A DNA stretch of 48,917 nucleotides from positions 1-48,917 of IMG/VR virus record IMGVR_UViG_3300025141_000158. One strand, 5' to 3'. Both the position numbers and the translations under genes were made by a program. A model generated the notes under the pieces. The model was not told the DNA's origin. It ran no database searches and saw only the letters and a list, made by a program, of their open reading frames with translations. This document shows positions 6,310 through 44,294 of this stretch, in pieces. Source of the DNA: a virus (taxonomy: Duplodnaviria; Caudoviricetes). Numbering within the stretch: position 1 is the first letter of the stretch; the number at the start of each line of letters is the position of its first letter.

Positions 6310-6466
6310 ACTTGACTTAATTCTAGATGTACGCAAGCGTAGACGAGAACGCAGCCAGTCTAAATTTAACAAAAAGTCAAAACCAAAACGTACGCAAAAG
6401 ATGTTGGCTGGTCTTAATGATGAGCAGTTACATTTGTTGCTTAATACTTTAAGGACTGAAAAATGA
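6257..6466 (+). CDS. Hypothetical basic protein
   Basis: ATGA overlap with the downstream gene. Confidence 0.65.
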   Translation: MDLISEQTNLQTLTEKDRLDLILDVRKRRRERSQSKFNKKSKPKRTQKMLAGLNDEQLHLLLNTLRTEK

Positions 6467-7824
6467 GTGAAGCAGTAGTTGAATTAAATAACCTACCTGT
6501 AAATGCTATTGAGTTTTCAGATAGAGCAAGGGAGAACTATAAAGATTTAGATGTACTAGCTAAAGATATAGCAGAGAAAGGTGTTATACAACCTATAGCT
6601 GTTATGCGTAATCCTGAAAGTGCTGAACATCACTATAAGTTATTAGCTGGGGGAAGGCGATTTTCTGCTGTTGTTTTATCCGAATCTACTCACATTCCTT
6701 GTAGAATTTACCCAGAGACTTTATCAGAACTAGACCAAAAAGAAATAGAGTTGATGGAAAATATTAGTCGAGATGATTTCGACTGGAAAGAAGAAGTAGC
6801 TCTACGAGATCAAATCCAAAAACTACAAGAGGAACGTCACGGTAAGCAAGCGGGGTCTGGTGGTGGTCACTCTATGCGTGACACTGCCAAGATGTTGGGA
6901 ACAAGTCCTGCTAGCATTAGTCGTGACCTTACTCTAGCGCGGGGCTTGGAGGCACATGAAGATGAACTATCCAAAGCAAAAAGTAAAAGCGAAGCCTTAC
7001 GGACGCTTAAGAAAATTGAAAGAAAGCAAGAAGAAAAGGTTGTTGCGGAGAATCTGGAAAAGTCTTTGCAGAATGATGGGAATGAGAGGCTTAAACGAAC
7101 TCTAACCAATGGTTACCTAGTCAAGGATTTCTTTGAAGGTGTTAGCGTGGTTCCTGATAGAGCTGCTTCTTTTATCGAAGTAGACCCTCCTTATGCTATA
7201 GCACTTGATAAGATAAAGAGAGGAGCTGAAAGAGAAACAAGCCCAGGTATAGAAAATTACAATGAAGTATCAAGTGAGGATTACCAAGACTTTTTAGATA
7301 ATCTATTTATAGAGTGTTATCGTGTCTTAGCTCTTAATGGTTGGATTGTCTGTTGGTATGGCATACAGTGGTATCATGTTGTATTAGCTAGCATGGAGAA
7401 CGCGGGATTCCAAGTTATTGATCTTCCAGCTATCTGGACAAAAACTGACCATCAAGGGCAAACTAGAGTTCCTGACGTTCGTTTAGGTAATGTATATGAG
7501 CCTTTCTTTTATGCTCGTAAAGATAGTTCAGCAGTAATTAGACAACCTGGTCGAACCAATCAGTTTAACTTTAAATCATTACATCCTGAGCATAAGGTTC
7601 ACCCTACAGAACGGCCGATTGAAATGATAGAAGAAGTCATAAGAACCTTCTGTGTACCTGGTGGTCATATAATGGTTCCATTCTTAGGCAGTGGCAACAC
7701 GTTGCTAGCTGCATCTAACTTAGGCTCTACTTGTTTTGGTTACGATCTTAGTGAAGAATATAAGAATGCTTACTTAAAACGGGTAATGGATGGTGAGCCT
7801 GGAAAGTATAAGAGTTACCGATGA
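6463..7824 (+). CDS. ParB-like (CTPase fold) + HTH + beta-class N6-adenine/N4-cytosine DNA methyltransferase fusion
   Basis: GVIQPIAV, LLAGGRRFSA, ELMENISRDDF (ParB N-domain); SMRDTAKMLGTSPASISRDL (HTH); DPPY, HPTERP, VPFLGSGNT (MTase). Confidence 0.9.
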   Translation: MSEAVVELNNLPVNAIEFSDRARENYKDLDVLAKDIAEKGVIQPIAVMRNPESAEHHYKLLAGGRRFSAVVLSESTHIPCRIYPETLSELDQKEIELMENISRDDFDWKEEVALRDQIQKLQEERHGKQAGSGGGHSMRDTAKMLGTSPASISRDLTLARGLEAHEDELSKAKSKSEALRTLKKIERKQEEKVVAENLEKSLQNDGNERLKRTLTNGYLVKDFFEGVSVVPDRAASFIEVDPPYAIALDKIKRGAERETSPGIENYNEVSSEDYQDFLDNLFIECYRVLALNGWIVCWYGIQWYHVVLASMENAGFQVIDLPAIWTKTDHQGQTRVPDVRLGNVYEPFFYARKDSSAVIRQPGRTNQFNFKSLHPEHKVHPTERPIEMIEEVIRTFCVPGGHIMVPFLGSGNTLLAASNLGSTCFGYDLSEEYKNAYLKRVMDGEPGKYKSYR

Positions 7825-8021
7825 AATGTAATGAGTGCGGTACTAAATTAAGGGGCGCTGTTAATGCAGATGTATATGCTTGCTTTAGTTGCAAGGTTGC
7901 ATACAGTGGGATAGACGCACGTAATAAAAGTCGGATAAAAAACAAATCAGATAGGATAAATGAAGCTAAGCAGTACTATAAAAAGGTTGGAGAAAAAATA
8001 AAGAGAGGGGAAAATATATGA
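7821..8021 (+). CDS. Small zinc-ribbon protein
   Basis: CNEC...CFSC; ATGA overlaps. Confidence 0.7.
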   Translation: MKCNECGTKLRGAVNADVYACFSCKVAYSGIDARNKSRIKNKSDRINEAKQYYKKVGEKIKRGENI

Positions 8022-10408
8022 CCGATGCACCTTATGTTGCGGGTAGTCCCTTTGAGAAAATAGCTATTGTAGGGGAATATCCAGGTGCTGAAGAAGAACG
8101 CTGTGGGGGTGCGTTCGTAGGTAAGGCAGGACAACTACTAACAGAACTCTTACAACATGCAGGAATAAGTAGACAGCAGTGTTACTTAGATAACGTGTTC
8201 CAATTCAGGCCTGCACGAAATGATATAAGCCCGTTCTTACGAGTACAAGAAGGTAAGACAAGAGAAAGTGCTGAGTACCATACTAACCGAGAACAACTAC
8301 GACAACGCTTATCAGACAGTAAGGCTAACGTCATTGTTGCTTTAGGTAACGTGTCTCTTTATACTTTGACAGGAAAGACTAACGTAACAAAACAACGAGG
8401 CTCTATACTTGAAAGCACCTTACTTCCCGGTAAGAAAGTTATTCCTGTAATACACCCAAGCGCTGCTCTACGTGAGTTCCTGTTCCGTTACTTTATTGTG
8501 AATGACTTCTTACGTGTTCGCAAGGAAAGTGAATTTCCAGAGCTAAGAATTAGAAACAGGCATCTTGTTCTTAACCCATCAATGGAAGATGTTGAACAGT
8601 TCATTGCACGTTGTCGTACGTTAAATCGTATAGCATATGATATTGAAGTTCGGGGCATGGAGATGAGTCACATAGCTATAGCCTCTGAACCTAATATGAG
8701 TGTGTGTATTCCTTTTGTTAATGGACAAGCAGACTATTGGAACCCTGAGCAAGAGGCTCACATCATGTGTCTGTTGGCTGATCTGTTGGAAGACCCTAAT
8801 GTGGAAAAGATAGGCCAGAACTTATCTTTTGACGCTACCTTTCTGTACTCTAAGTATGGTATAGTAGGATCACCATTGCAGGACACAATGATAGCTGCAG
8901 GGATTCTCTATCCTGACTTTCCTAAAGGACTAGACTTTCTTGTTGCTCAGTACTGTGATGGGGAACCGTACTATAAGGATGACGGCAAGGAATGGTTCAA
9001 GAATCCATTCGGCAGTGAGGAAGTATTCAGACGCTACAATGCTATGGACAGTGCTGTTCTCATGGAAATCTTTCCTAAACAAGAAGAAGAACTAAAGAAG
9101 CAAGGTAACTTTGATGCGTATGAGAAACAGCGTTCCCTTCTCCATCCACTAGTCTATGCAGGTAACAAAGGTATAAGGATGGATACAGAGGCTATGAATG
9201 ATGCCTCTATGGAGTGCTCCCGTAAAATCTCAGCACTACAAGAAGAACTAAATGAAATAGCAGGTAGGGAACTTAATCCCAATAGTCCTAAGCAACTAAA
9301 GGAATATTTCTATATCGAGAAACGTCAAAGAGCTTACACAAGGAATGGTAATATAACTGTGGATGATAAGGCACTTAAGCGTATGAGTGCTAAAGGAATG
9401 AAAGAAGCAGATATAATACTTGAACTGCGTAAGGAACGTAAGATGCAAGGTACGTACTATGAAATGAAGCTAGACGAGGATAATCGTTTACGCTGTTCAT
9501 TCAACCCTGTAGGCACTGCTCAAGGTCGTATCAGTAGCTCCAAGACAATACGCGGAACTGGTGCTAATCTTCAGAACCAACCATGGCAGATGAACTCACT
9601 GATGCTTGCGGATGATGGTTATATCTTAATCAATCAAGACTTAGGACAAGCAGAAAATCGCGTAGTTGCATTTGTTAGTGGAGAGAATAAGATGATGCGA
9701 GCTTTTGAAGAAGGCATTGATATTCATACACAAACAGCTAGTATGATATATGAGCTACAACCTGAGGATGTAACTAAGGATCAAAGGGATTGGGGTAAGC
9801 GTGCTAACCATGGACTCAACTATGATCTTGGCTATAGAAGTTTTGCCCTCTACTATCAGACCACAGAAAAAGAAGCAAAGAACATTGTAGAGCGCTATCA
9901 CCACATCTATAAAGGTGTGCGTGAATGGCACGCTACAGTACGTGAAGAACTAAGCAGAAGTAACAAGACACTAACAAATTGTTTCGGGCGTAAGAGGACG
10001 TTTCTTGATCGCTGGGGACATGATCTATTTAAAGTCGCTTATTCCTACATACCACAATCTACTATCGCAGAACTAATGAACACATACGGAGTCTGTTTTC
10101 TATACGAACGTCAAGATCTTTTTCCAGAAGTTCAATTCCTTAACACTATCCATGATAGTATTCGTTATCAAATTCCCTTATCAGTAGGGAATGAACGTAT
10201 AATAGAAATTATCAAGACAGTAAAGGAAAGTTTAGAACATGAGTTAGAATGGAGAGGAAAGACCTTTTCTATTCCTGTTGATACTGAACTAGGGTTTACA
10301 TTCAATAAAACAACTATGATTGAATGGAACGCTAAAAAGGTTGATACTGTAAGTGTGGGTGATTTATCTGTGGAGCTGGAAAATTATGTCGAAAAGAGTG
10401 CTCAATGA
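8018..10408 (+). CDS. polA: Family A DNA polymerase with an N-terminal uracil-DNA-glycosylase-like domain and a 3'-5' exonuclease
   Basis: VGEYPGAEE..GGAFVGKAG and HPSAALR (UDG family 4-like); YDIE, NLSFD, YNAMD (exo); GRISS, NLQN, DLGQAENR, KRANHGLNY, IHDS (PolA). Confidence 0.93.
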   Translation: MTDAPYVAGSPFEKIAIVGEYPGAEEERCGGAFVGKAGQLLTELLQHAGISRQQCYLDNVFQFRPARNDISPFLRVQEGKTRESAEYHTNREQLRQRLSDSKANVIVALGNVSLYTLTGKTNVTKQRGSILESTLLPGKKVIPVIHPSAALREFLFRYFIVNDFLRVRKESEFPELRIRNRHLVLNPSMEDVEQFIARCRTLNRIAYDIEVRGMEMSHIAIASEPNMSVCIPFVNGQADYWNPEQEAHIMCLLADLLEDPNVEKIGQNLSFDATFLYSKYGIVGSPLQDTMIAAGILYPDFPKGLDFLVAQYCDGEPYYKDDGKEWFKNPFGSEEVFRRYNAMDSAVLMEIFPKQEEELKKQGNFDAYEKQRSLLHPLVYAGNKGIRMDTEAMNDASMECSRKISALQEELNEIAGRELNPNSPKQLKEYFYIEKRQRAYTRNGNITVDDKALKRMSAKGMKEADIILELRKERKMQGTYYEMKLDEDNRLRCSFNPVGTAQGRISSSKTIRGTGANLQNQPWQMNSLMLADDGYILINQDLGQAENRVVAFVSGENKMMRAFEEGIDIHTQTASMIYELQPEDVTKDQRDWGKRANHGLNYDLGYRSFALYYQTTEKEAKNIVERYHHIYKGVREWHATVREELSRSNKTLTNCFGRKRTFLDRWGHDLFKVAYSYIPQSTIAELMNTYGVCFLYERQDLFPEVQFLNTIHDSIRYQIPLSVGNERIIEIIKTVKESLEHELEWRGKTFSIPVDTELGFTFNKTTMIEWNAKKVDTVSVGDLSVELENYVEKSAQ

Positions 10409-30588: not shown

Positions 30589-30911
30589 TGTATTGTAAAT
30601 CCTGTAGCATTAATTTGACAATCAGAACCGCTAGAAGCTATAACTGCTGTGACATCTGCATCTCTACTTGCCAACCATCCACTGGGATTAGTAAAACTAA
30701 ATGAAATACCCTCTACTGATACATCTATTTTCCATTCAGCTAATACCGTAGATCCATCTTTCAGCTGTATAGTACTATCAGCGTCTACATGGCCACTCAC
30801 ATGATCTGTAACAATTACTTTATTTGAAACTGCCGACTTAGTAGCTGTCGCACCAGAATTTGTTCCAGCTGCAGTGGCACTCCATCTACCATTAAGAGCA
30901 ACACTATCCAT
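30585..30911 (-). CDS. Small beta-rich putative virion protein
   Basis: GAGGTG SD; S/T/A/G-rich. Confidence 0.65.
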   Translation of the reverse strand: MDSVALNGRWSATAAGTNSGATATKSAVSNKVIVTDHVSGHVDADSTIQLKDGSTVLAEWKIDVSVEGISFSFTNPSGWLASRDADVTAVIASSGSDCQINATGFTIQ

Positions 30912-31866
30912 AACTCACCTCTTTCAGAGTATCTTCTCTAGCCCATTTTTTTATTATTTCTATCATAAACTTAATTCGATCATTATAAGTGTGCATTTCT
31001 CGTACTTTTATATGTCCACTCTTTGCTATTTCTTCGCGTTCCATAGGATGTTTTAAAGCCCAATCAATTTTCTCAATAGCTTCTTCGGGACTTGTATATC
31101 CTAAGAAATCTTCGCTTTCTTTAAATCCTAAACTTTCAATACCAACAACATCAGTGTTTGTAACAAGACAGGTTCCATAACTCATAGTTTCAAAAAATCG
31201 CATATTAAGATCATCACGAATTGAAACATTAAACCCTACTCTACCTCGTGCATAACGAACAGCGGCATCAGCCATAAAACAATTAAAAGACAACCAACTG
31301 TTATTAAACCGATTAAAAACACAGTCTAAATATTCTAAGCGATTTTTTCCCTCTTGTACACCATTAACTATATGTCCGTTATTTAAGTACCCAACAAAGA
31401 CAACATCATGTCTTTTATTTACTCCCCATTCACCTAAGATTTCATTTGAGGCTCTAGTTAATTCTCCAGCAGTAAGATCAACACTCGGAGTACACGCCAA
31501 CGGAAGCCAATGAACATTTTCAACTCCATCACCCTTCATCTTATCTACAGCTGGAAGTTGAGCAACAAAAACAATGTCAAACTTCTTTGCCCACTCTAAT
31601 CTTTGTTCATACCCTAAGTGCGTATCAACAAGATAACAACACTTTGGTGCATCACCTTTAGGAAGTTCCATAGGAATGTCATCTCTACCGTCATCCACAA
31701 ACAACCAAAAATCATGTTCTCCATAGTCAACCTCATCGTGAAACGGCCTAGTATAACGCTTCATTCCTGTGTCTTTAAAACCTTCACGAAAGAACGCTTC
31801 ACTTATTCTTCTTGCTGTACCATTATTTCTTATATCAGCGTTATAAAACAATCCAGGTGATTTCAT
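30904..31866 (-). CDS. CgeB-like GT-B glycosyltransferase
   Basis: HWLPLAC, DVVFVG, FNVSIRDDLNMRFFETMSYG, IA..G...V...HTY..R. Confidence 0.88.
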   Translation of the reverse strand: MKSPGLFYNADIRNNGTARRISEAFFREGFKDTGMKRYTRPFHDEVDYGEHDFWLFVDDGRDDIPMELPKGDAPKCCYLVDTHLGYEQRLEWAKKFDIVFVAQLPAVDKMKGDGVENVHWLPLACTPSVDLTAGELTRASNEILGEWGVNKRHDVVFVGYLNNGHIVNGVQEGKNRLEYLDCVFNRFNNSWLSFNCFMADAAVRYARGRVGFNVSIRDDLNMRFFETMSYGTCLVTNTDVVGIESLGFKESEDFLGYTSPEEAIEKIDWALKHPMEREEIAKSGHIKVREMHTYNDRIKFMIEIIKKWAREDTLKEVSYG

Positions 31867-33116
31867 TATGCAGCCACCTTTCTTGCTTCCACTTTTATTG
31901 CTCCTACTTTATCTTCCTCAATATTATCTATTTTAAACCCGCAAGTTTCAATTAAGTTCTGAAGTGCGTCTTTATTAAAAGCGTGAACATGAGTATAATC
32001 AATAAGCATAGTAGGAAGCCTATTGTGGTTAGGAACAGACAAAAACAACATCCCATCCTCTCTTAATAATCTAAACCATTCTTTCATAGTACGCAAGACA
32101 TCTATTGTGTGTTCTAAAATATGTGTGGCCACGATATAAGATTGACTACCATCATCAAGAGGAATATCAGCAGCATCTGCAATTAACTCTGCTTTACTAT
32201 CTTTTCCTTGCTGTCCTCCCGCATTTCCCACTGAATTATTTATATCAACACCTAAAGCTCCCTGTACCTCCTTATCACCACATCCTATATTAAGTCCAGG
32301 CTCGCCATTAAAATTTTTAGTTACTTTTTCTAACCATAAATCTTCACACGATTCTTCGGCACTATTTAATCTTGATTCCACTTTTGCCCATCCCGCTTGA
32401 AAACATTCATGCCAAGCTTTTACTCCATGTTTTCTTATTAGTGCGTTATTTGTTAACTCTTGATGCCAAGTTGAGTCCCAGTGACCTTTGTGTACTCTAT
32501 TGCCTGTTTGTTGCCCAAAGTGATGTAAGTAGCAACGCTTATCAACACGTAAATCATAACCCGCTTTAGTTAGTTTAATACTTAAGTCTAAATCATCACC
32601 ACCTGGTAATGTAGGATCTAGTCCGCCTAAATCTTTTAAAACATTAGTTCGTATTAACAAACAAAAACCAATTAATACAGAAGAATTAAAATTATTATCT
32701 GTATCTATAAACATTAAGCTTTGAGCACCAGCAACAAAATTAGAACAAGGATTAACAGCTCCTACGCACCCTTCTTTAAAGTTAGAAATAAGAATACGCC
32801 AAAACTCTTGTTGACCAGGTATAAATACAACATCATCATTTAATAAACAAAAGTACTCGGTATCACAGTCATTTAAAGCTAAGTTAATAGCTCCCATCCA
32901 ACCAAGATTTTCTTTAGGCTCTATAACTGTTAGAGGTAATTTGTTATTAATGTTATTTCCCATGTCTAACTTATATTTCACTTCTCCTTTCCCACCATTG
33001 TCAATAACAATAACTTTTAACGGGTATTCAGTATGCTTAAAAAGGCTCTTAATGCACCATTCTAACTGTTGTAAATTATGCCATGTAGGAATAGCCACAG
33101 TAAGTGAAGGTTTCAT
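31866..33116 (-). CDS. GT2 glycosyltransferase fused to a class I SAM methyltransferase
   Basis: VAIPTWHN, VIDNG, LLNDD, DDLDLS; then LNIGCG, HILEH, LSVPN. Confidence 0.9.
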   Translation of the reverse strand: MKPSLTVAIPTWHNLQQLEWCIKSLFKHTEYPLKVIVIDNGGKGEVKYKLDMGNNINNKLPLTVIEPKENLGWMGAINLALNDCDTEYFCLLNDDVVFIPGQQEFWRILISNFKEGCVGAVNPCSNFVAGAQSLMFIDTDNNFNSSVLIGFCLLIRTNVLKDLGGLDPTLPGGDDLDLSIKLTKAGYDLRVDKRCYLHHFGQQTGNRVHKGHWDSTWHQELTNNALIRKHGVKAWHECFQAGWAKVESRLNSAEESCEDLWLEKVTKNFNGEPGLNIGCGDKEVQGALGVDINNSVGNAGGQQGKDSKAELIADAADIPLDDGSQSYIVATHILEHTIDVLRTMKEWFRLLREDGMLFLSVPNHNRLPTMLIDYTHVHAFNKDALQNLIETCGFKIDNIEEDKVGAIKVEARKVAA

Positions 33117-33949
33117 TTAACCCCCTTATTTGCTTTCATAAGCTCTTCATATTGTTCAGGTATAGTTTTTCTGTATAACTCATAAGATGTTGCATCAGCC
33201 CATCGAGGTGCGTGTTCTTTATGTTGTGTTTTTACTCTGGTGTCCATATAACGTGGAATACCATATTCAGCGCAACGATAACAAAAATGCCAATCTTCGC
33301 CACAACCTGTACTGGAAAACCAAGGCTTAGGAATCTCTTTAAACACATTCATATTGTAAAGCATACAAGCACCACCTAAAGCGAGCTCACCATTTATATC
33401 ATCATTCCCCACTAATTTTTCTTTAGGATAATCAAAAATTATTTCTGAGTTCTCAACAAATTCTTGATTATTTATTGTATCACGCTCTTTCTTTATACTA
33501 TAAAGCACTGGATGTATTGGAGTACGCGCTGTAAAGGCTAAGGCACCGACAACAGGAACTTTATTCCGCAACAAACTTAAAAAAGCTGAGTAATTAAAAA
33601 GCATATCAGCATCCCACCAGAAAAGATAATCAGCTCCCCAATCTAAAGCAGCGTCTACAATAATCTCACGTGCACGACCAACAAGACTAGTTCTACTGTA
33701 ATCAATTAAGGCTATTTCTAATCTTCCTAGTAAGTCATAATCTTCTTCTGTAGGATTCCCTGCCTCATCACCTGACTCATCTAACATAGGAAGTTTATCT
33801 CTTAATCCTAACCATGCGTCACGGGGCATAGAATCACGCATTACAGTTCTCTCTCGCAATGCACCAAAGTACATCATTAAATCTAAATAAGCTGGCCCTG
33901 TATCAGCATCAGGACCATTGTACCACGGTACTCCTATAGCTAACTTCAT
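33113..33949 (-). CDS. GT-A fold glycosyltransferase
   Basis: RAREIIVDAAL, YLFWWDADM (DxD), GGACML, PWF..GEDWHFC. Confidence 0.85.
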   Translation of the reverse strand: MKLAIGVPWYNGPDADTGPAYLDLMMYFGALRERTVMRDSMPRDAWLGLRDKLPMLDESGDEAGNPTEEDYDLLGRLEIALIDYSRTSLVGRAREIIVDAALDWGADYLFWWDADMLFNYSAFLSLLRNKVPVVGALAFTARTPIHPVLYSIKKERDTINNQEFVENSEIIFDYPKEKLVGNDDINGELALGGACMLYNMNVFKEIPKPWFSSTGCGEDWHFCYRCAEYGIPRYMDTRVKTQHKEHAPRWADATSYELYRKTIPEQYEELMKANKGVK

Positions 33950-35059: not shown

Positions 35060-36043
35060 CTATGTCAAACCAGTTAATTTGCCCAAACCAGCGCGTAGGT
35101 TAGTAGCCATGTTACCTTGAAACAGAATCGGAGCCAAGAACGAATCTTGGTTTACTGGACTCTGCATACCATCAGGTCCCATACTAAAGTACGCATCCTT
35201 GTGGACAAAAATCATGATGTGCTTACTATTGAGAACATACAAGGTTCCAGAAGGACACTTGCCTTCCCAATAAACCGTAGCACCACGAAACTTAGGCTTA
35301 ATACTCAATTCACCTTCGCCACCTGGTGTATAACGAATTGCAGGCACGATCAATGCTTCAAGAGTCTCAGCCATTGTTTGAGTCGTGAAGATAGCATCTG
35401 GCTCACCTTCAACACCCGAAATCTCAGTACAATCATTAAACATCGTACGGAGGTTAGGCAGAAGATTAGCCGCTGCATTACCAACACCAGTAATAACATT
35501 GTTACGCCATTTGTCATTATTACCAAAGTTAATATCTGCATACGTGCCAGAAGTATTTGTAGTAGCAACCATTGCTTCCAAACCTGTAATCTGCTTAGAA
35601 CCATTTGCTGTTCCATCACTGAAAGCATCGGTAGCTAAGTTATCTGCCAACGTAGCTTCTGCTTGGAACAAACGATCTTTAGCAAGATCACGAATACGGC
35701 TTTCGCCTTGATTACTACGTTTCTCGATACCAGAAATTACGACAGTCGTAGCCGCTTGCTTCCAATCAAAGAAAGCATTTGTCTGTCCATCATAACCTGA
35801 AGGATCCAGAGTTTCATATCCTGAGTAACGCTTAAAGTTACCAGAACCTTCATACATTACAGGTAGCTTAATTCTTTCACCGCCAGTCAACTTCTTAATA
35901 CGGCTTCCTTCATTAAGCCACTTCCAAAAAGAACTACGTTTGTGTACTTGGTCACGGAGCATTCCGCTATCCAAATAGTTCATAACAGTGGAGCTAAGTA
36001 GACCACCCCATGTTATACTAGGACTTGCATCTTTAATTCCCAT
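35060..36043 (-). CDS. Major capsid protein (HK97 fold)
   Basis: 327 aa after the scaffold; GGERIKLP, YSGYETL, DGTANGSKQITGL; terminal G.LTG. Confidence 0.88.
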   Translation of the reverse strand: MGIKDASPSITWGGLLSSTVMNYLDSGMLRDQVHKRSSFWKWLNEGSRIKKLTGGERIKLPVMYEGSGNFKRYSGYETLDPSGYDGQTNAFFDWKQAATTVVISGIEKRSNQGESRIRDLAKDRLFQAEATLADNLATDAFSDGTANGSKQITGLEAMVATTNTSGTYADINFGNNDKWRNNVITGVGNAAANLLPNLRTMFNDCTEISGVEGEPDAIFTTQTMAETLEALIVPAIRYTPGGEGELSIKPKFRGATVYWEGKCPSGTLYVLNSKHIMIFVHKDAYFSMGPDGMQSPVNQDSFLAPILFQGNMATNLRAGLGKLTGLT

Positions 36044-36082: not shown

Positions 36083-37030
36083 TTATTGTCCAGTAAGCTG
36101 TCGCTTACCTAGTGCCCAAGCTCGTTCGAATACATCTTCAGCAGAATCATTTCGACTAGGATCATATATCCTTACTTGAGGTGATCCACTGCCTCTGGAA
36201 CTTCTTCTAACGGTCGCACTTGGAGACGGTCTACGTTGTTGTGGAGGTGGTGCCTGTTGAATAACTTGTTGAGGTTGTGGCACTGGGGCTTGAGCTCCAA
36301 ACTCCAGTTTATACAAATCCAACGGTGTTATACCAGTTGCTGGATCACGAAGTTGTGCAAGTCTTTCCCTTAACCGTTCTTGCACTTCTGGGTGTATCCT
36401 AACATTACCTGCCTCATCCACAGATCCAAACTGTTCACCAAACTGTCCGTAAGCATCCTCTAAATTTTGTTGGATATGACTACGTGATTGAGCTTCTATC
36501 GCTCGATCCTCCAACTCTTGTCGAGGAACATAACCTAAATGGTCAGCCATTGCTCTAAACATTTCTATATGCTGCTCAGAAACGCCTTCAGGTAAGGCTT
36601 GTTCATCAACTTGCCCTTCATCCTGTGCAGGAGCTGGCCCTTGTTCCCGTTGAGATAGCATTTGCTCACGAAGACCGAGAACTTCCCCCTTTAAATCATT
36701 CCACTCATTAATGTTCTGGTGCATTTGACGTTGCATACCAGACATGATTCTAGCAGCTTCAGGGTCACTCTGTCTTAGTCGAGATAAAACCTCATCTGTA
36801 CCTTGCCTACGACCTTCATCCACTCTTACTTGTGGAACAGGTGCATCGGCTTGAGACTCAGGTTCCATCTCTACTCCTGATACTTCCAGTCCATCAAGGA
36901 CGCCCTGATCATCAACGTCCCCCCACTTTCCAGCTTCCTCGTTAACAAAAGAACGATAGTCCTCTTGTGCGGAAACACTTTCTGAATCTACAACACCTGC
37001 ATCACCCATATCTCCAGCCACTTCTGACAT
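36083..37030 (-). CDS. Capsid scaffolding protein
   Basis: Acidic coiled coil upstream of the MCP; C-terminal SAEDVFERAW helix; GGAGG SD. Confidence 0.7.
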   Translation of the reverse strand: MSEVAGDMGDAGVVDSESVSAQEDYRSFVNEEAGKWGDVDDQGVLDGLEVSGVEMEPESQADAPVPQVRVDEGRRQGTDEVLSRLRQSDPEAARIMSGMQRQMHQNINEWNDLKGEVLGLREQMLSQREQGPAPAQDEGQVDEQALPEGVSEQHIEMFRAMADHLGYVPRQELEDRAIEAQSRSHIQQNLEDAYGQFGEQFGSVDEAGNVRIHPEVQERLRERLAQLRDPATGITPLDLYKLEFGAQAPVPQPQQVIQQAPPPQQRRPSPSATVRRSSRGSGSPQVRIYDPSRNDSAEDVFERAWALGKRQLTGQ

Positions 37031-37078: not shown

Positions 37079-37510
37079 TCATTTAAGACCTTCCCCTGCA
37101 TTTGGAAGATCATCTATCTTGTGAGTACCTGTAACTTCACCCTTTTCATTCATCGTAGTAACTTCTGCATCACTCTTTGATTTTGGTGGATTCCAAACTT
37201 TACCCTTTGGTTTCTGCTTCCCAATCAAGTTCGGCATCTTTGAATCAAAATTCCTACCTCCATGAACAGGATCTCCAGCCTCTATAACGCCCTGCTGTTC
37301 CATTATAGCTTTTTTGTGCCGCTTACTGTAAACGTCACTATTTAATCCCTCATCAAAGTATTCTTCAAAAGTCTCTGCATTAAAACGCTCAGGTACTCTT
37401 TTCATCTTATTGCCACACCTACAATGTGTGGCTTTATTCCTTTCCTCAACTGTCCGAAGAAAGTCTTCTTTGTTTTTACATGGCTCACATACAAATGAAT
37501 ATACTGGCAT
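37079..37510 (-). CDS. FmdB-like zinc-ribbon protein
   Basis: MPVYSFVCEPC...CRCGNKMKRV. Confidence 0.8.
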   Translation of the reverse strand: MPVYSFVCEPCKNKEDFLRTVEERNKATHCRCGNKMKRVPERFNAETFEEYFDEGLNSDVYSKRHKKAIMEQQGVIEAGDPVHGGRNFDSKMPNLIGKQKPKGKVWNPPKSKSDAEVTTMNEKGEVTGTHKIDDLPNAGEGLK

Positions 37511-37511
37511 A

Positions 37512-38672
37512 TTAGTCGACTCCTCCGACCTTAAAGTTTCCTAGACTTCCATACGGATATGGGACAGGTTTTGGATTGTAAGCCTTATAAGTAATAGCAT
37601 TTATAGCACCATAAGATAAATCAGGAAAAAGATCTTTTAGTCTTTTAGCGAATTGAATAAAAGTTATATTATCCAGAGAAACGTCACCTGGAAATTCATC
37701 AAAAAATTCCCACGCATTAGTAAGTTGATTTTTTAGCTGATAGGGAATTTTATCCCATATTTCTTCTTGCTTAGGAGTAAACTCAATATCACCCCTCTGT
37801 GAATAGCTAAGAGGTTCTTCTGCAAGCGGTGATTGCATATTCTTTGCTTCAGGATATAAATAGTATAATTCTTCTTCTGCAAGATCCAGCTGTCGAGGTA
37901 AATCAGCAAGCTCATCTGCTTTTGTTTTGTACTGACTACCATCTCCATATTGACTTGTAACTTCTTTGAGCTGTTCGCCCATATCCTTTTTAAAACTTTC
38001 ATCAGCCTGTGATGTGGGCTTAGAATCCATAGCATTAATATCACTAGGTGAATACTGTGCTTTTTGTTTATCTGATAAATTATCATAAAATTGTTTTTGC
38101 GTCGGTGTCAAATCATCATAAGTTATTTGCGGAGGCTCTGGGCCTTCAACAAGTTTAAAGCCAGAACCAGAAGATTTCGCCTCACCTAAAACTTCATCAA
38201 TTACCTCGCCACCTTCTGGCTTTCTCATATGTGGACTAATAGATTGAAACGCATCTTTACTTTCTTTCATCGCATCGCTAAATTCTTTTTCCCATTTTGA
38301 GAGCTCAAGATCATGTGGGTCTAATTTTTTAAAACGCCCTATAGGAAGGAGAGACATTAATAGTTCTTCTTCTAATGCACTTCCTGTAGTTGGAAGCACT
38401 CCTCCTAAAAATCTAAGTGCCTCATCTCCCCCACTAATAACAGCTTCCCCTATAGGCCCTAAACGATGGGGAGGTTGATCCTCAATCCATTGTTCAACTT
38501 CCTTTCTTTCGGGGTAAGCTTCTTCTATAGCCCTAAAAGGAGTAGTAAGAACTTCCCCTAAAGCGGATAATTCACGCCTTCCTCTTGGTAAATCTTTGTA
38601 TAAGCTCCATGCTCGATCTAACCCTAATAGGTCAGGCGGAGCAGGTCTATATTCCATTCTACCGTTTGCCAT
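37512..38672 (-). CDS. Hypothetical protein (probable virion protein)
   Basis: 386-aa ORF in the late operon. Confidence 0.7.
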   Translation of the reverse strand: MANGRMEYRPAPPDLLGLDRAWSLYKDLPRGRRELSALGEVLTTPFRAIEEAYPERKEVEQWIEDQPPHRLGPIGEAVISGGDEALRFLGGVLPTTGSALEEELLMSLLPIGRFKKLDPHDLELSKWEKEFSDAMKESKDAFQSISPHMRKPEGGEVIDEVLGEAKSSGSGFKLVEGPEPPQITYDDLTPTQKQFYDNLSDKQKAQYSPSDINAMDSKPTSQADESFKKDMGEQLKEVTSQYGDGSQYKTKADELADLPRQLDLAEEELYYLYPEAKNMQSPLAEEPLSYSQRGDIEFTPKQEEIWDKIPYQLKNQLTNAWEFFDEFPGDVSLDNITFIQFAKRLKDLFPDLSYGAINAITYKAYNPKPVPYPYGSLGNFKVGGVD

Positions 38673-38805
38673 TGTTTTTCTTTACCTTAATCTTAACTTT
38701 ACGCTTAGGCTTAGTTTTTTTCCGTTTAGGTTTACGCTTGGAGGGAGCCATATTTGTAGTACTGGCCAACCCTCCCCACGTAATGTTTGGCGTAGCGTTA
38801 CTCAT
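38659..38805 (-). CDS. 48-aa peptide: capsid N-arm-like segment plus a polybasic tail (not in the ORF track)
   Basis: ATGA overlap with the upstream stop; MSNATPNITWGGLASTTNMAPSKRKPKRKKTKPKRKVKIKVKKNNGKR. Confidence 0.75.
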   Translation of the reverse strand: MSNATPNITWGGLASTTNMAPSKRKPKRKKTKPKRKVKIKVKKNNGKR

Positions 38806-40067
38806 TTTCCCTTGATCTGCGAAGCACGCATTTGCTGTAAAATTCGCTGTGGGACATTACGATCTGAAACTCTGTCACGACGCTCTTTTAATCTCCGTGT
38901 TGCACCTGGCCCGCTATATCTTTCAGCTCTTTCAGCATCCTGCAGTTTTTGAAGATCTTCTATCTGATCCATTATTTCATATTTCTCTGATTGCGAACCA
39001 GATAATCTAGACTTTGTATAAAGATCTTCTATTGCTTTACTAACAGGATCAAAAAGATTTGCAAAAAAGCTAGACAAAGTTGGAGGGCCTGCTTTCATTT
39101 GTGGTATAGGTTTTTCACTTAATCTTTTTAGTTCACTGTCTCTAACTCTAGTCTTACCCTCATCATCAGTATAAACATCAAAATCAGCTAATGGATTACC
39201 TACCGGCATCATAAACTCAGGACGATTTTCCATAAACTCTGCAAACTCTTTTTCATCAACTGGCCTGTCATATTCATTCATGTCTAGTGCGGTAATTTCT
39301 TCTTCTGGTTCCATCGCTTCAGATCCCTCTCCAACAATAGTAACAGGAGGAACCTCAATTTCTCCGCTCCTAACAAGTTCATTATACTCATCAGTGGTAA
39401 TAGGCTCTTCAGTCTCATCATCATCCCAAGGCCCAAGAAGATTTTTACGCCTTTGATTATATTTCTGTGCGAACTCACCGTCAGGATTTTCACTCAGTTC
39501 TTTTTCTTGTGCTGCAATATAAGTTGGGAAATCAATATGACCCGCATTAAAAGCTTCCAATAACTCGTCTATACTTTTTCCGCTCATAAACATTTTGATC
39601 TGTTCTTCGCGTGACAGAGGACTTGTAGTTATTGTCTCTGATGAATTGTCTGTTGATAAAACTTTTTCTATTGCTGTTTTATCTTTAGGCATAGTTCCCA
39701 TAGCCTCCATCTGCTCAAATATCGGAGTCCATGCGTCTGCACCACGCATCGCGTTTGCACGATCCCTTTCAGCTTTTCTTTTTCCTGCCATGTTCTTACT
39801 ACGGGATTGCTCGCGGTTATAATCTGCTCTATCTTGATCGCTTCTTGCACGTCTTTTAGTTTGCTCACGAGATGCTATCGCATTGCGTCTTTGTGCTGCT
39901 TTTTGTTTTTGTCTACGATCTTGTCTACGATTTTCTAGATCTTGTTCCCCTAAACCCAATGCATCAGATAAAGCTCTCCCTAGTCTAGTATCCCTAAAAA
40001 TATTTTCATCCCCAGTTTTTCCTTGCTGTTTATCCATTCTTTTTCTTTGCCATTGACTTGGTGGCAT
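38802..40067 (-). CDS. Hypothetical protein (basic N-terminus, acidic middle)
   Basis: A GGAG SD favours start 40067 (MPPSQW) over 40115. Confidence 0.7.
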   Translation of the reverse strand: MPPSQWQRKRMDKQQGKTGDENIFRDTRLGRALSDALGLGEQDLENRRQDRRQKQKAAQRRNAIASREQTKRRARSDQDRADYNREQSRSKNMAGKRKAERDRANAMRGADAWTPIFEQMEAMGTMPKDKTAIEKVLSTDNSSETITTSPLSREEQIKMFMSGKSIDELLEAFNAGHIDFPTYIAAQEKELSENPDGEFAQKYNQRRKNLLGPWDDDETEEPITTDEYNELVRSGEIEVPPVTIVGEGSEAMEPEEEITALDMNEYDRPVDEKEFAEFMENRPEFMMPVGNPLADFDVYTDDEGKTRVRDSELKRLSEKPIPQMKAGPPTLSSFFANLFDPVSKAIEDLYTKSRLSGSQSEKYEIMDQIEDLQKLQDAERAERYSGPGATRRLKERRDRVSDRNVPQRILQQMRASQIKGK

Positions 40068-40068
40068 A

Positions 40069-40494
40069 TCAATAACTCCATATAGTTGGGCGAGGCACGT
40101 GAAAATTATCCTCACTCGTTATAGTATCTAAATGTAAAAACCGCCCATCACCTTTCTGCTTAATTCCTATTCCTGTAAAACCATATTGCATAGCTCGCTT
40201 AAGTACTTCATACGCTAATTCTCGATCACAAGCAATATCAACTGCTTTTCCTGTTGTATGAGCACCTCCAGGCTTTCCGCCTTTTATTTTATCGGCTTCT
40301 ATAGGGTGAGAAACATCACGATAACCAGAAGTAATAGTTAACGGACGCCCTAAGTCACTGCGTAATAACTGTAACTTATCCATAAAACTTTCATCAACAA
40401 AACAAATGCCAGTCTCTTTACACTTCATCTCATTAACACTAAAATTCGGCCACCGTTCTTTTGGCCATTCACTTGGATTACTAAATGTTCCCAT
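40069..40494 (-). CDS. Peptidase M15A-family endolysin (Zn peptidase)
   Basis: ITSGYR, H..GKAVDI, GFTGIG...FLHLD. Confidence 0.88.
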   Translation of the reverse strand: MGTFSNPSEWPKERWPNFSVNEMKCKETGICFVDESFMDKLQLLRSDLGRPLTITSGYRDVSHPIEADKIKGGKPGGAHTTGKAVDIACDRELAYEVLKRAMQYGFTGIGIKQKGDGRFLHLDTITSEDNFHVPRPTIWSY

Positions 40495-40519: not shown

Positions 40520-42670
40520 TTAAGAGGCTTCTGCTTCCGCAGCTTGCCCACCTTCACTTGGAGCAACACCCTCAGCAAAGGCTTGTGGATTAAGAGGCCC
40601 AATTCCCGTATCTGCATTTTGTCCTGCTGTAACTGCATCTTGTGCAGCTTGTGCTTGAGGGTCTGTAAACTCTGGTGCTTTACCTTCCTGTGTTCGGGCC
40701 ATTTTTTGTTGGTTTATTTCAGCTGCTTTATCTTTTCCTTGTTGCTGTAACATCTCACTAGCATACTCCAACATTGGGAGCAACTCATCTACTGTTTCCT
40801 CACCGAAACCACGAACAAGAACACGCCTTGCAAGTTCTGGAATATTCGGAGGAAGCCCAAACGACTCAACCATGAGAGGCGTTAACCCAGAGAATAAATT
40901 CAACAAGTCCATAAACTGCTTTCTCTCTACATTGATAGCCGAAGCATGACTTGTAACATCCATAGTTGTCCAATACTCTCCTCTAGCCATTTCAGGAGAA
41001 ATCTCAACAAAACTAGATGCACTACGATCAATAAAGAAAAGTTGATCTGGCAAATACTGTAAATCCATTTGCAACATCTTACGAGCTTTACGAACTTGAA
41101 ATTCTGTCAATAACGCACTACGTCTATTCTCACGACTAGTATTACGTTTTTCCATTATACTAGCTTCTGTTGCTGTATCTACTTTAGGCATAGAGATCGG
41201 CTGTGGTGTCCCTACAGACCTATCAAACATTTGCTGTAAAAGCGACATCATCTCATTTTTCTCATTTGGAACCTGTTGAAACGGAAGTGGAAGTAAAGCA
41301 TTTGCCGCTCCACGCTCTGCCAGACCTGGAACTTCTATAACACTTCCATCAGGTGCATCTAACATATCGGCTATAACAGTTTTGTTGATCCCTAACTTCG
41401 GATCAACAAGCCACACATTCTTTTGCTTCCTTATAGTAGAAAGAAAGGAATCAAGAATCTCATTAATAAGAGCTTGTACCGTATCACCACCACCAAGAAG
41501 AAGTGTAGGCAAGTGATACCAACTATCCATACCAGCGTGATAAGATACAACTTCTACGGGATAATCATCTATTCTGTCATAGGGCCACTCTTCTTCTTCT
41601 TGTATAAAAACATCAGCGCCTTCTACGATAGTTATAAGAAGATTTCTAAACTTGCCTTCTGCTACAGGAAAGTTCCTTGCCCATATTTCCCATCCACGAA
41701 CTACATCAAAACCATCTTCTACTTCTTGTCCTTCATCATACTGAGGAGCATCTGCATACCTGCTTGGCTCTATCTGATCTGTATTTTTATAGCCTGGATT
41801 AGCTTGTACTTCAGCCAATGGAAGTTCCCAACCAAAAGCTATCCAACGTGCATCACCTGGCCCTTCTGATGCAAAAGGATCAGTTAAGAACATATCAGGC
41901 CTCCATCTTACTGCATATGGAGCACCTCTACGTATGTTGGTATTTGCGCTAGGCTCTGCCCGATCTAAGTATTGTTGATGCAATTTTATGTGATTATTTA
42001 AAGCAGCTAATAAAGGAGCGTTTTTACCTTTTCTACCTTGTGCTTTAAGCGTTTTACGCAATTCTTTATGTGCTTCCAAATGGAAAACATGATCGTCATC
42101 AGGCCCCACTCGTAGTGGTTGCCCAATAGCCAAGAGAGTGTTTTCTTCTTCTGGATCTTCATCGTTATCTAATGCTCCCTCTAATTCAGCTACTAATTCT
42201 TGTTGTAATTCTTTTTCATCTAATGTATAACCAATTTTAGCTACACCATAAGGATTAAGAAAAGCATCTAAAACTATACGTTCATCTACACGAAGTTGGT
42301 TAGTTTCACGGTAACGATAATTGATAACTTTTTCTGCTGCTTGAGCATAGCTTAAACTTTGCGGATCTTCTTCATCCATTCTTTCCGCAGCTGCTCTATT
42401 CTGTGGATGCACTCTAAACATAGGAGCGCGATCCAACATATTAGCGATAGACTGATCAATCCAACCAAATATAAGACCGCTTTTAGTTCTCCTAATATGC
42501 TCTTCATCATAATCATCACCTTCAGTTGCTTCACGATCTGTAGAGGCTTCATTATAATATTGCTTTTGTAGTATTTCACAGGCTTCAAATAATGGTTTAG
42601 CTTTTTGTTGGCTATACCCTATTTGATTTTGCCAGTAAGCTACTCTTTCGTCTTCTGTATCAGGATACAT
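40520..42670 (-). CDS. Portal protein (P22-like)
   Basis: 716 aa right after terL; YGVAKIGY and TATEASI motifs; Gln-rich tail. Confidence 0.85.
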   Translation of the reverse strand: MYPDTEDERVAYWQNQIGYSQQKAKPLFEACEILQKQYYNEASTDREATEGDDYDEEHIRRTKSGLIFGWIDQSIANMLDRAPMFRVHPQNRAAAERMDEEDPQSLSYAQAAEKVINYRYRETNQLRVDERIVLDAFLNPYGVAKIGYTLDEKELQQELVAELEGALDNDEDPEEENTLLAIGQPLRVGPDDDHVFHLEAHKELRKTLKAQGRKGKNAPLLAALNNHIKLHQQYLDRAEPSANTNIRRGAPYAVRWRPDMFLTDPFASEGPGDARWIAFGWELPLAEVQANPGYKNTDQIEPSRYADAPQYDEGQEVEDGFDVVRGWEIWARNFPVAEGKFRNLLITIVEGADVFIQEEEEWPYDRIDDYPVEVVSYHAGMDSWYHLPTLLLGGGDTVQALINEILDSFLSTIRKQKNVWLVDPKLGINKTVIADMLDAPDGSVIEVPGLAERGAANALLPLPFQQVPNEKNEMMSLLQQMFDRSVGTPQPISMPKVDTATEASIMEKRNTSRENRRSALLTEFQVRKARKMLQMDLQYLPDQLFFIDRSASSFVEISPEMARGEYWTTMDVTSHASAINVERKQFMDLLNLFSGLTPLMVESFGLPPNIPELARRVLVRGFGEETVDELLPMLEYASEMLQQQGKDKAAEINQQKMARTQEGKAPEFTDPQAQAAQDAVTAGQNADTGIGPLNPQAFAEGVAPSEGGQAAEAEAS

Positions 42671-44294
42671 TCATTACCTGTTCTGAGTCCCAATCTTCAT
42701 CAAGTGGACTCTTTTCGGGGAAGGGAAGTACTATAGCTCCTCTATTCCAAGCACGTCCACGCCTTCTATTGCTATTCATTTCACGATAATCATCAAAAGA
42801 TAATCCTTGAACTTCCAAGCTAAAAGCTCCCTCATCCACAGGATCAAGTCCCTTAGCCACAAGTAAGTCATCTAACTTCATCCCGATAAGAGCAAAAGCA
42901 TCTACTTGGTCATCATTCTTACCATTAGGGAACTTTGTAAGTTCATATTGAAAATTGGCAAGCCAGGGAGCAAATGAGGGTGCGTGAACGTAACCCATCT
43001 GCATAGCTCCCGCAATAGACCCTGCACGTTGTGGAGAATCCTTACGACCTTTACCAATAACTGAAACATCTATACAAGATGTCCAAGCTCCCGCTTCTTT
43101 TCGTGCTTTTGTAAGTATCGGCCCTATAGCTTTCTGCATATGTACTTTTTCAAAGAACCATTGTAAAGGCTCATATTCAAGCATCAAGTCTACACACTGT
43201 GAGACACCACCAAGAATATCAACTTGCTTACGCCAAAGATCAATTATCCAAATGTGACCACGCGAACATACTCCAAACACCATATGAACAGTGTAATCCC
43301 CACTACCCTCTGTAAGAGCAAAGTCACTTGCTCCGTAAAGCGTTATATTCTCTGGTAATTCACTTCTATTATAAAGCCGTAAGTCTTCAGGCTTAAACAA
43401 TCCTCCTTCATCTGAAAATGGCTTCTGCTGATGAACAGCCATAAAGATGTTAGGATTCCTTTTCCTTAGTTGTTCCAACTCATCTTTTGTTCTTCTGTTA
43501 GGACCATCAGGAAGAAGCGGCTCACCTTCCTCACGACCAAGAAGATCATCTTCTTCAGCTAAAGAGGGAACCTTTATAATATCCCACTCTTCTTCACTTT
43601 CCTCATGGAGCTTCTCTATTCTACCACCCAAGTCATCATCATGCCACCTTTGCATTATAAGAATAACACTTCCAGGCCCATCCTTATATGAGCGAAGACG
43701 ATTAAGCAAAACGCCTGCATACCAGTCCCACACTAATCTTCTTTGATTGTCACTAAGGGCACTCTCATAACTCTTAAATGGATCATCAATTACAGCAATA
43801 TGACCGTGAAATCCTATAAGTCCTCCACCTACACCCTCCGCTTTATACTCACCCCCTTGATTCGTTTTCCACTCAGCCATAGCCGTAGCATCATGGGCTA
43901 AGGCGACTTCGGGAAAAAGTAAAGCATATTTAGGATGCTGTAAAAAGTTCCGTACATTCCTTCCAAAACTCTTTGCCAGAGCCTCATCATAAGAAGTCTC
44001 GATGAACTCGTGCGTAGGGTTCCTACCGAAGAACCAACTGGGAAAAAGCTCGCTTGAGAGGCGGGACTTGCCTATGGCCGGTGGCACAAAAATAGCAAGC
44101 CGCCTTAATCTACCAGCCTCCACATCCTCAAGTTTACGTGCAATCAACCTATGTATGTCGAAAGGCTCGTAACTGGGATCCATGAACTTACAGTAGTCTA
44201 TTAGCGAAGTTTTCGCGGCCTGTCTACGTGCAAGTTCTTCAGCAGCACCCTTAACGGTGAGCTCTGTCTTTTCCCCGAAAGACTCACTCATCAC
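42660..44294 (-). CDS. terL: Terminase large subunit
   Basis: PPAIGKS Walker A; VIDDP Walker B; MQRWH.DDL; SDFA; FPNGKNDDQVDA nuclease motif. Confidence 0.95.
   Translation of the reverse strand: MMSESFGEKTELTVKGAAEELARRQAAKTSLIDYCKFMDPSYEPFDIHRLIARKLEDVEAGRLRRLAIFVPPAIGKSRLSSELFPSWFFGRNPTHEFIETSYDEALAKSFGRNVRNFLQHPKYALLFPEVALAHDATAMAEWKTNQGGEYKAEGVGGGLIGFHGHIAVIDDPFKSYESALSDNQRRLVWDWYAGVLLNRLRSYKDGPGSVILIMQRWHDDDLGGRIEKLHEESEEEWDIIKVPSLAEEDDLLGREEGEPLLPDGPNRRTKDELEQLRKRNPNIFMAVHQQKPFSDEGGLFKPEDLRLYNRSELPENITLYGASDFALTEGSGDYTVHMVFGVCSRGHIWIIDLWRKQVDILGGVSQCVDLMLEYEPLQWFFEKVHMQKAIGPILTKARKEAGAWTSCIDVSVIGKGRKDSPQRAGSIAGAMQMGYVHAPSFAPWLANFQYELTKFPNGKNDDQVDAFALIGMKLDDLLVAKGLDPVDEGAFSLEVQGLSFDDYREMNSNRRRGRAWNRGAIVLPFPEKSPLDEDWDSEQVMNVS

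Follow-up and report, generated by a model that had tools for sequence, protein, structure and literature searches.

A selected, accessory head-module gene of a tailed phage that mimics the N-terminal arm of the phage's own capsid protein

What might a tailed phage gain from a small, free-standing gene that repeats the N-terminal arm of its own major capsid protein (MCP) and appends a basic tail to it? The question is raised by a 48-aa peptide encoded at positions 38659..38805, on the minus strand, of a 48,917-nt stretch of viral DNA (IMG/VR record IMGVR_UViG_3300025141_000158, positions 1 to 48,917), the whole of which is referred to here as the window. The window represents the genome of an uncultured tailed phage, whole or in large part. 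Its head genes, all on the minus strand, run in the order TerS, TerL, portal, M15 peptidase, 437-aa ORF, peptide, 386-aa ORF, zinc-ribbon protein, putative scaffold and MCP. The terminase large subunit (42660..44294) and the HK97-fold MCP (35060..36043) were assigned by matches to phrog_38 (E 9e-92) and phrog_9953 (E 8.7e-51), respectively, and the portal protein (40520..42670) by a weak match to phrog_12082 (E 0.0042) together with its position after TerL. The ORFs of 437 aa (38802..40115) and 386 aa (37512..38672) on either side of the peptide belong to no known family and are variable or absent in relatives. A 143-aa zinc-ribbon protein (37079..37510; PF09723, below the cut-off, E 7e-6), present in all 25 gene maps, and a 315-aa acidic protein (36083..37030), directly before the MCP, complete the module. 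The latter matched no Pfam or PHROGs family, and we infer from its position and conservation that it is the scaffold. Among the 34 window proteins scanned, many ORFs being without a match, no protease family was found except that of the M15 peptidase, which is of the cell-wall type.

Elsewhere in the window, a family A DNA polymerase carries an N-terminal domain of the uracil-DNA-glycosylase superfamily (8018-10408), a ParB N-terminal domain is fused to an N6/N4 DNA methylase (6463-7824), and glycosyltransferase and glycosyltransferase-methyltransferase genes (30904-33949), possibly serving virion or DNA modification, directly follow the capsid genes within the structural operon. The zinc-ribbon gene directly precedes the scaffold gene in almost every relative examined, and in cultured phages whose MCP is 30% identical a gene like it occupies the same place; we know of no role for a zinc-ribbon protein in this position.

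The peptide begins at an ATG, and its residues 3-19 (codons at 38749..38799, minus strand) match MCP residues 5-21 (approximately 35981-36031) with 11 identities in 17 positions (BLASTP, E 2e-6 for the pair), as had been proposed in a first-pass annotation. The match scores 61 without gaps under BLOSUM62, while every other match, over all six frames of the window, stays below 28. From about residue 22 to residue 48 there follows a tail with 17 Lys/Arg and no Asp/Glu, which bears out the polybasic character claimed for it and leaves the peptide with a net charge of +17. At the nine identical residues other than Met and Trp, peptide and MCP have no codon in common, so the likeness is one of protein, in keeping with the earlier observation of synonymous differences. 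The ATGA overlap on which translational coupling had been proposed was likewise found, 4 nt being shared with the stop of the 437-aa ORF; at the other end, the last codons of the peptide overlap the start of the 386-aa ORF by 14 nt. When profiles of 22 peptides and 106 MCPs were compared, the peptide start aligned to the MCP start (probability 85, E 5.8e-6). Searches for other affinities returned little: the window peptide matched no Pfam or PHROGs family, a PHROGs scan of 22 members of the peptide family gave one weak match (E 0.018), every match in the ESM Atlas fell below 0.8, and a PDB sequence search with the peptide profile yielded low-complexity matches only, none of them relevant. Predicted alone, the peptide has no fold (pTM 0.15).

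Whether such a short ORF is a gene at all is an immediate concern. A query of viral contigs with the peptide returned 11 loci, and MCP-based scans raised the total to 237. In 105 of these (the window counted) the portal end and the MCP start are both present, and the 105 reduce to 62 distinct rows; scans of GTDB gave no relative of the window's clade and a single distant MCP. An arm-like head followed by a basic tail was present in 25 of the 62 distinct portal-MCP intervals (47 of the 105 loci), as called by position, basic tail and likeness to the phage's own arm, partly by eye. An automatic scan of whole loci at a score of at least 22 recovered 20 of 26 called peptides, while the same scan returned 0/26 for an internal MCP control segment and 0/37 for negative rows. 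The called peptides below this cut were those of L030, L108, L158, L210, L226 and L231, of which L158 is without a proximal basic run. Lying between the portal and the scaffold or MCP gene, the peptide gene reaches relatives with 35-38% MCP identity; it is present in 17 of the 22 rows at 55% MCP identity or above and in 8 of the 40 rows below 55%. A protein search with the 22-peptide alignment found 28 proteins of 40-81 aa, and all 18 that were inspected belong to the known types of arm peptide.

Over 16 arm codons, pN was lower than pS in 13 of 13 chosen pairs, which are not independent of one another; between the window and locus L017, for example, pN was 0.08 and pS 0.69. Conservation of the ORF, on which the first-pass annotation had staked its proposal, was thus borne out, and we regard it as confirmed that the ORF is a real gene under purifying selection. 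The short, low-complexity tail and the weak ribosome-binding site in the window (-4.0 kcal/mol) might otherwise have suggested a chance ORF, or a neutral remnant left when the MCP 5' end was partially duplicated. This reading is largely refuted by the selection just described, by the divergence of synonymous sites from the MCP gene while the residues are kept and by the control MCP segments (0/26 matches); the gene also persists while its flanking genes are freely replaced. Its probability appears close to negligible. In four relatives (L028, L133, L136 and L132) the locus is reduced to the minimal order of portal, peptide, zinc ribbon, scaffold and MCP.

Positions 37512-40494 of the window, and the interval from portal to zinc ribbon in L011, L021, L031, L091, L142 and L189, are a hotspot where large ORFs of 270-1490 aa, unrelated to one another and matching no family, are swapped even between phages with 97-99% identical MCPs. 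At least three other families of Lys/Arg-rich ORFs, of 40-75 aa, were noted in this slot, whether or not the phage also has the arm peptide. Such ORFs occur directly after the portal in L106, L093, L094 and L095, and also in L032, L149, L027 and L154, in L011, L003 and L163, and in phage BUCT555 (L241 6543-6701). At L158:8074-8286 (71 aa), an arm-like head is apparently fused to one of these other small basic proteins.

The peptide gene is missing from 37 of the 62 intervals, close sisters (L189, L040 and L125) included, and in L040 the portal gene abuts the zinc-ribbon gene with no peptide between them. A search of four negative records in full (two of them at least 90% complete), run without a positive control, found only an MCP arm itself. 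No arm copy was found within about 9 kb in the cultured phages ppBjS10J-1, Mx9, ctMlz233 and BUCT555 (MCP 30-33% identical), which are 4 of 53 records. Among 139 more distant MCP types there were no matches at a score of at least 36, and four at 30 or above against seven for the control segment; with a basic-tail filter the count was one against two for the control, a comparison from which copies as weak as those of type B, described below, could escape. With so many sister phages lacking it, the gene is accessory: on the reading favoured below, a reinforcement and not an essential part.

If the peptide acts through its likeness to the arm, it might be expected to follow the MCP N-terminus among relatives, as the first-pass annotation had also stipulated. 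The MCP arms fall into three types, found in separate MCP clades (quick tree of 66 rows, arm removed). For 19 representatives, mean scores of peptide against MCP were 36, 20 and 41 within the types and 0-17.5 across them, the lowest of the former reflecting the weak resemblance of type B peptides to their MCP arms (mean 18-20); comparison of peptides from different types gives scores of only 1-8. Each of the 19 peptides scored best on the arm type of its own MCP even when that MCP was excluded, and own pairs exceeded permuted pairs (p 2e-5), figures that stem from only three types, and so from few independent observations, in which kin share labels and the choice of positives inflates own scores. 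Within a type, tracking of the own MCP was not found (p 0.27, 0.89 and 0.67). The expected tracking was hence upheld between arm types and failed strain by strain, strain-level co-evolution of peptide with MCP not being found. Recent duplication or gene conversion was rejected, given that the codon is the same at only 25 of 118 identical residues, and across the family, too, the likeness is held at the protein level. The arm-type label changes eight times on the tree, at least five of these changes being forced by well-supported branches; the history of the gene may be one origin followed by losses and co-evolution, or separate duplications.

The copy is not uniform along its length. Across 19 pairs of peptide and MCP, the Thr equivalent to MCP T19 is identical in every pair, position 17 (S/T/A17) in 15, the equivalent of P8 in 13 and that of M21 in 12. 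L16 is identical in only three pairs and V20 in none, being polar or charged in 18, so that two hydrophobic positions of the arm are mostly polar or basic in the peptide; the anchoring pattern behind these counts presupposed the residue class at position 20, and the same register was obtained from a MAFFT alignment of 22 peptides and, for most peptides, from score-optimised placement. Such a pattern of kept and lost positions would be expected if one face binds while the other has lost its partner, an expectation that assumes a helix, which is absent from the model. In 17 of 19 peptides the invariant Thr is displaced by no more than three residues from its place in the MCP, so the N-terminal register is kept, and in 18 of 19 the basic run starts 5-10 residues past this Thr, where the body of the MCP would begin. 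The predicted structure of the MCP is an HK97 fold (pTM 0.71; nearest Foldseek matches 7f38 of A-1(L) and 6j3q of Mic1) in which residues 1-23 have pLDDT below 50, and the copied stretch coincides with these residues, unfolded in the monomer model. In 16 of 19 representatives the peptide start falls within -10 to +12 nt of an upstream stop; in six of the 19 that stop is the portal's, and there the start lies within 4 nt of it. Ribosome-binding strength was below that of the MCP in only 13 of 19 (p 0.10), too slight a difference to establish low copy number.

N-arms of HK97-fold capsid proteins bind neighbouring subunits or capsomers, according to the available text of two studies (PMC10575957, PMC10276861). 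In P-SSP7, the accessible part of a preprint describes N-arm residues 1-30 as disordered in one chain of each of the five portal hexons (bioRxiv 10.64898/2026.08.19.745834), and in P74-26 the N-arm of a portal vertex protein is described as joining the MCP sheet and touching DNA (PMC12407722, available sections). Against this background, the reading that we favour, though at somewhat less than even probability, is that the selected, free-standing arm copy fills an empty arm site of the head, most likely near the portal, with its basic tail on DNA. The free peptide would occupy a vacant arm-binding site of the shell and stand in for an MCP arm. Likely sites would be the few that ring the portal, which takes the place of one capsid-protein pentamer, and the loss of that pentamer's arms may leave vacancies for a free arm; the peptide would be present at low copy number in place of the arms lost with the penton, and its tail may hang inside the shell against the packed DNA. 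The kept face, the lost face, the kept register, the onset of charge at the start of the MCP body and the frequent coupling to the portal gene all fit a stand-in for an arm at the portal. Expression, binding to the MCP, low copy number, location at the portal vertex and contact with DNA are what we infer here. As a description, the proposed N-arm mimic with a basic tail stood, being conserved, selected and matched to arm type.

Several observations sit less comfortably with a stand-in at the portal vertex, among them the lack of tracking within an arm type and the weak likeness of type B peptides to their arms. Firstly, 37 of the 62 intervals are without the gene, so any vacancy must be tolerated in its absence. 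Secondly, a single kept face fits binding to the scaffold or portal equally well. Thirdly, the slot also takes unrelated small basic ORFs, in phages that have the peptide as well as in those that lack it. The last two may instead point to a function in loading, in which the arm copy would bind a partner of the MCP arm (scaffold, portal or MCP lattice) while the prohead assembles and so pack a basic peptide, either an internal one that neutralises DNA or one that is ejected, with no fixed site at a vertex. The retention of one arm face suits this account, as do the other basic ORFs, to one of which the L158 arm copy is fused, and a patchy presence is what non-essential cargo would show. A precedent is offered by T4, which packs basic internal proteins by means of a short N-terminal targeting sequence and whose relatives swap them (PMC9026906, in the portion available). 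However, the tail has neither a conserved domain nor a conserved length, which leaves charge as the only cargo; the larger ORFs of the slot have no evident arm-like N-terminus (judged by eye at 27 of the 37 negative loci); and the N-terminal register, kept in 17 of 19, would be unnecessary for a mere label. We consider the loading account unlikely, but a serious competitor. Taken together with the stand-in reading, it makes incorporation of the peptide into the head in some form probable.

The peptide imitates an arm that links subunits, its gene belongs to the head operon, and within a type it scores about as well against one MCP as against another; it could also modulate assembly, competing with MCP arms and thereby tuning the nucleation or expansion of its own head or poisoning the heads of co-infecting relatives. 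Yet co-expression with its own MCP would harm its owner, the loss of two hydrophobic residues would render it a weak competitor of intact arms, and competition needs no conserved basic tail. On these grounds we think modulation quite unlikely.

The design may not be confined to the relatives of the window. Gp61.1 of T4 (NP_049649.1, 54 aa; L455:2467-2631) matches residues 57-93 of gp23 in 17 of 37 positions (E 6e-9), and a run of lysines follows the gp23-like stretch. As with the window peptide, a small, separate ORF repeats an N-terminal stretch of the phage's own MCP and continues into a basic run. The two differ in that gp61.1 copies a region near the start of mature gp23, where the mature chains in the PDB begin, has a mixed Lys/Glu tail and is encoded beside the primase gene, whereas the window peptide lies after the portal. 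With no sequence homology between gp61.1 and the window peptide (E 42), the same design has arisen at least twice. Gp61.1 has no chain of its own in a PDB search, no description of its function was found in the literature, and the available parts of PMC3468402 and PMC12895675 tabulate it as hypothetical. The claim that tailed phages hold no described equivalent therefore needs qualification: a stand-alone copy of an MCP arm is not described in the full-text literature that we searched, which left out most subscription papers, but an undescribed analogue exists in T4.

The genomic position of T4 gene 61.1, among non-structural genes near dmd and spackle, is relevant to a further account. Host defences that sense capsid proteins exist, and the peptide might act as a decoy that titrates a sensor of the capsid-protein N-terminus; its patchy distribution and variable slot would accord with this. 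A decoy, however, must outnumber or precede the MCP, and the peptide gene, part of a late head module, is coupled to low-copy genes upstream of it, while the basic tail is left unexplained. We therefore hold this account to be very unlikely.

It is confirmed, then, that the window phage has in its head module a genuine gene, accessory but under selection, whose product mimics the phage's own capsid arm. Structural biology has yet to explain how the portal vertex compensates for the contacts of its missing penton and how small proteins find their way into heads; to these questions a gene that copies a capsid arm offers an answer at the level of sequence, searchable in any genome. The design shared with gp61.1 makes the idea testable in a laboratory phage, and an arm copy of 20 residues could serve as a loading tag for HK97-fold particles. 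A bolder generalisation, which we regard as possible but doubtful, is that tailed phages repeatedly evolve a copy of their own arm, retuned on one face and tipped with basic residues, that makes the lattice whole at the portal vertex and tethers DNA there, with independent origins in the clade of the window's phage (possibly more than once) and in T4-like phages. If true, the spare arm would be an overlooked class of component, carried even by the model phage T4.

Short basic peptides on the inner surface of a capsid, in contact with the genome, are familiar from the J protein of the Microviridae and the arginine-rich arms of small viruses. Their viruses have ssDNA or RNA genomes and a different capsid fold, each subunit carries one such peptide, and J does not copy its capsid protein. 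J acts in an ssDNA phage with a jelly-roll capsid, unlike the window, which encodes a terminase, a portal and an HK97-fold MCP. Further parallels are found among tailed phages. The internal proteins of T4 are likewise small, basic, non-essential and variable, and are described as entering the head through a short N-terminal segment; this tag is a propeptide whose cleavage depends on the gp21 protease, while that of the window peptide is a copy of the MCP arm (PMC9026906, available text). Gp4 of Patience and Adjutor is similarly small (54-102 aa), a coil when free and ordered only on the MCP; it fills split hexamers as dimers, and the accessible sections of its report mention neither that it copies the MCP nor that it has a basic tail (PMC11965321). 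Gp34 of P74-26 is a small extra protein that compensates for a missing penton: its N-arm joins the P-domain sheet of the MCP inside the capsid and one of its lysines touches DNA, as the window peptide is proposed to do, but its globular domain lies outside the shell, where the window peptide has no predicted fold, and the source, in the part available, does not describe gp34 as a sequence copy of an MCP arm (PMC12407722). The function of the window peptide is most likely a variant of that of such small accessory head proteins, reached by copying the capsid arm, a route that was not met with in the literature searched.
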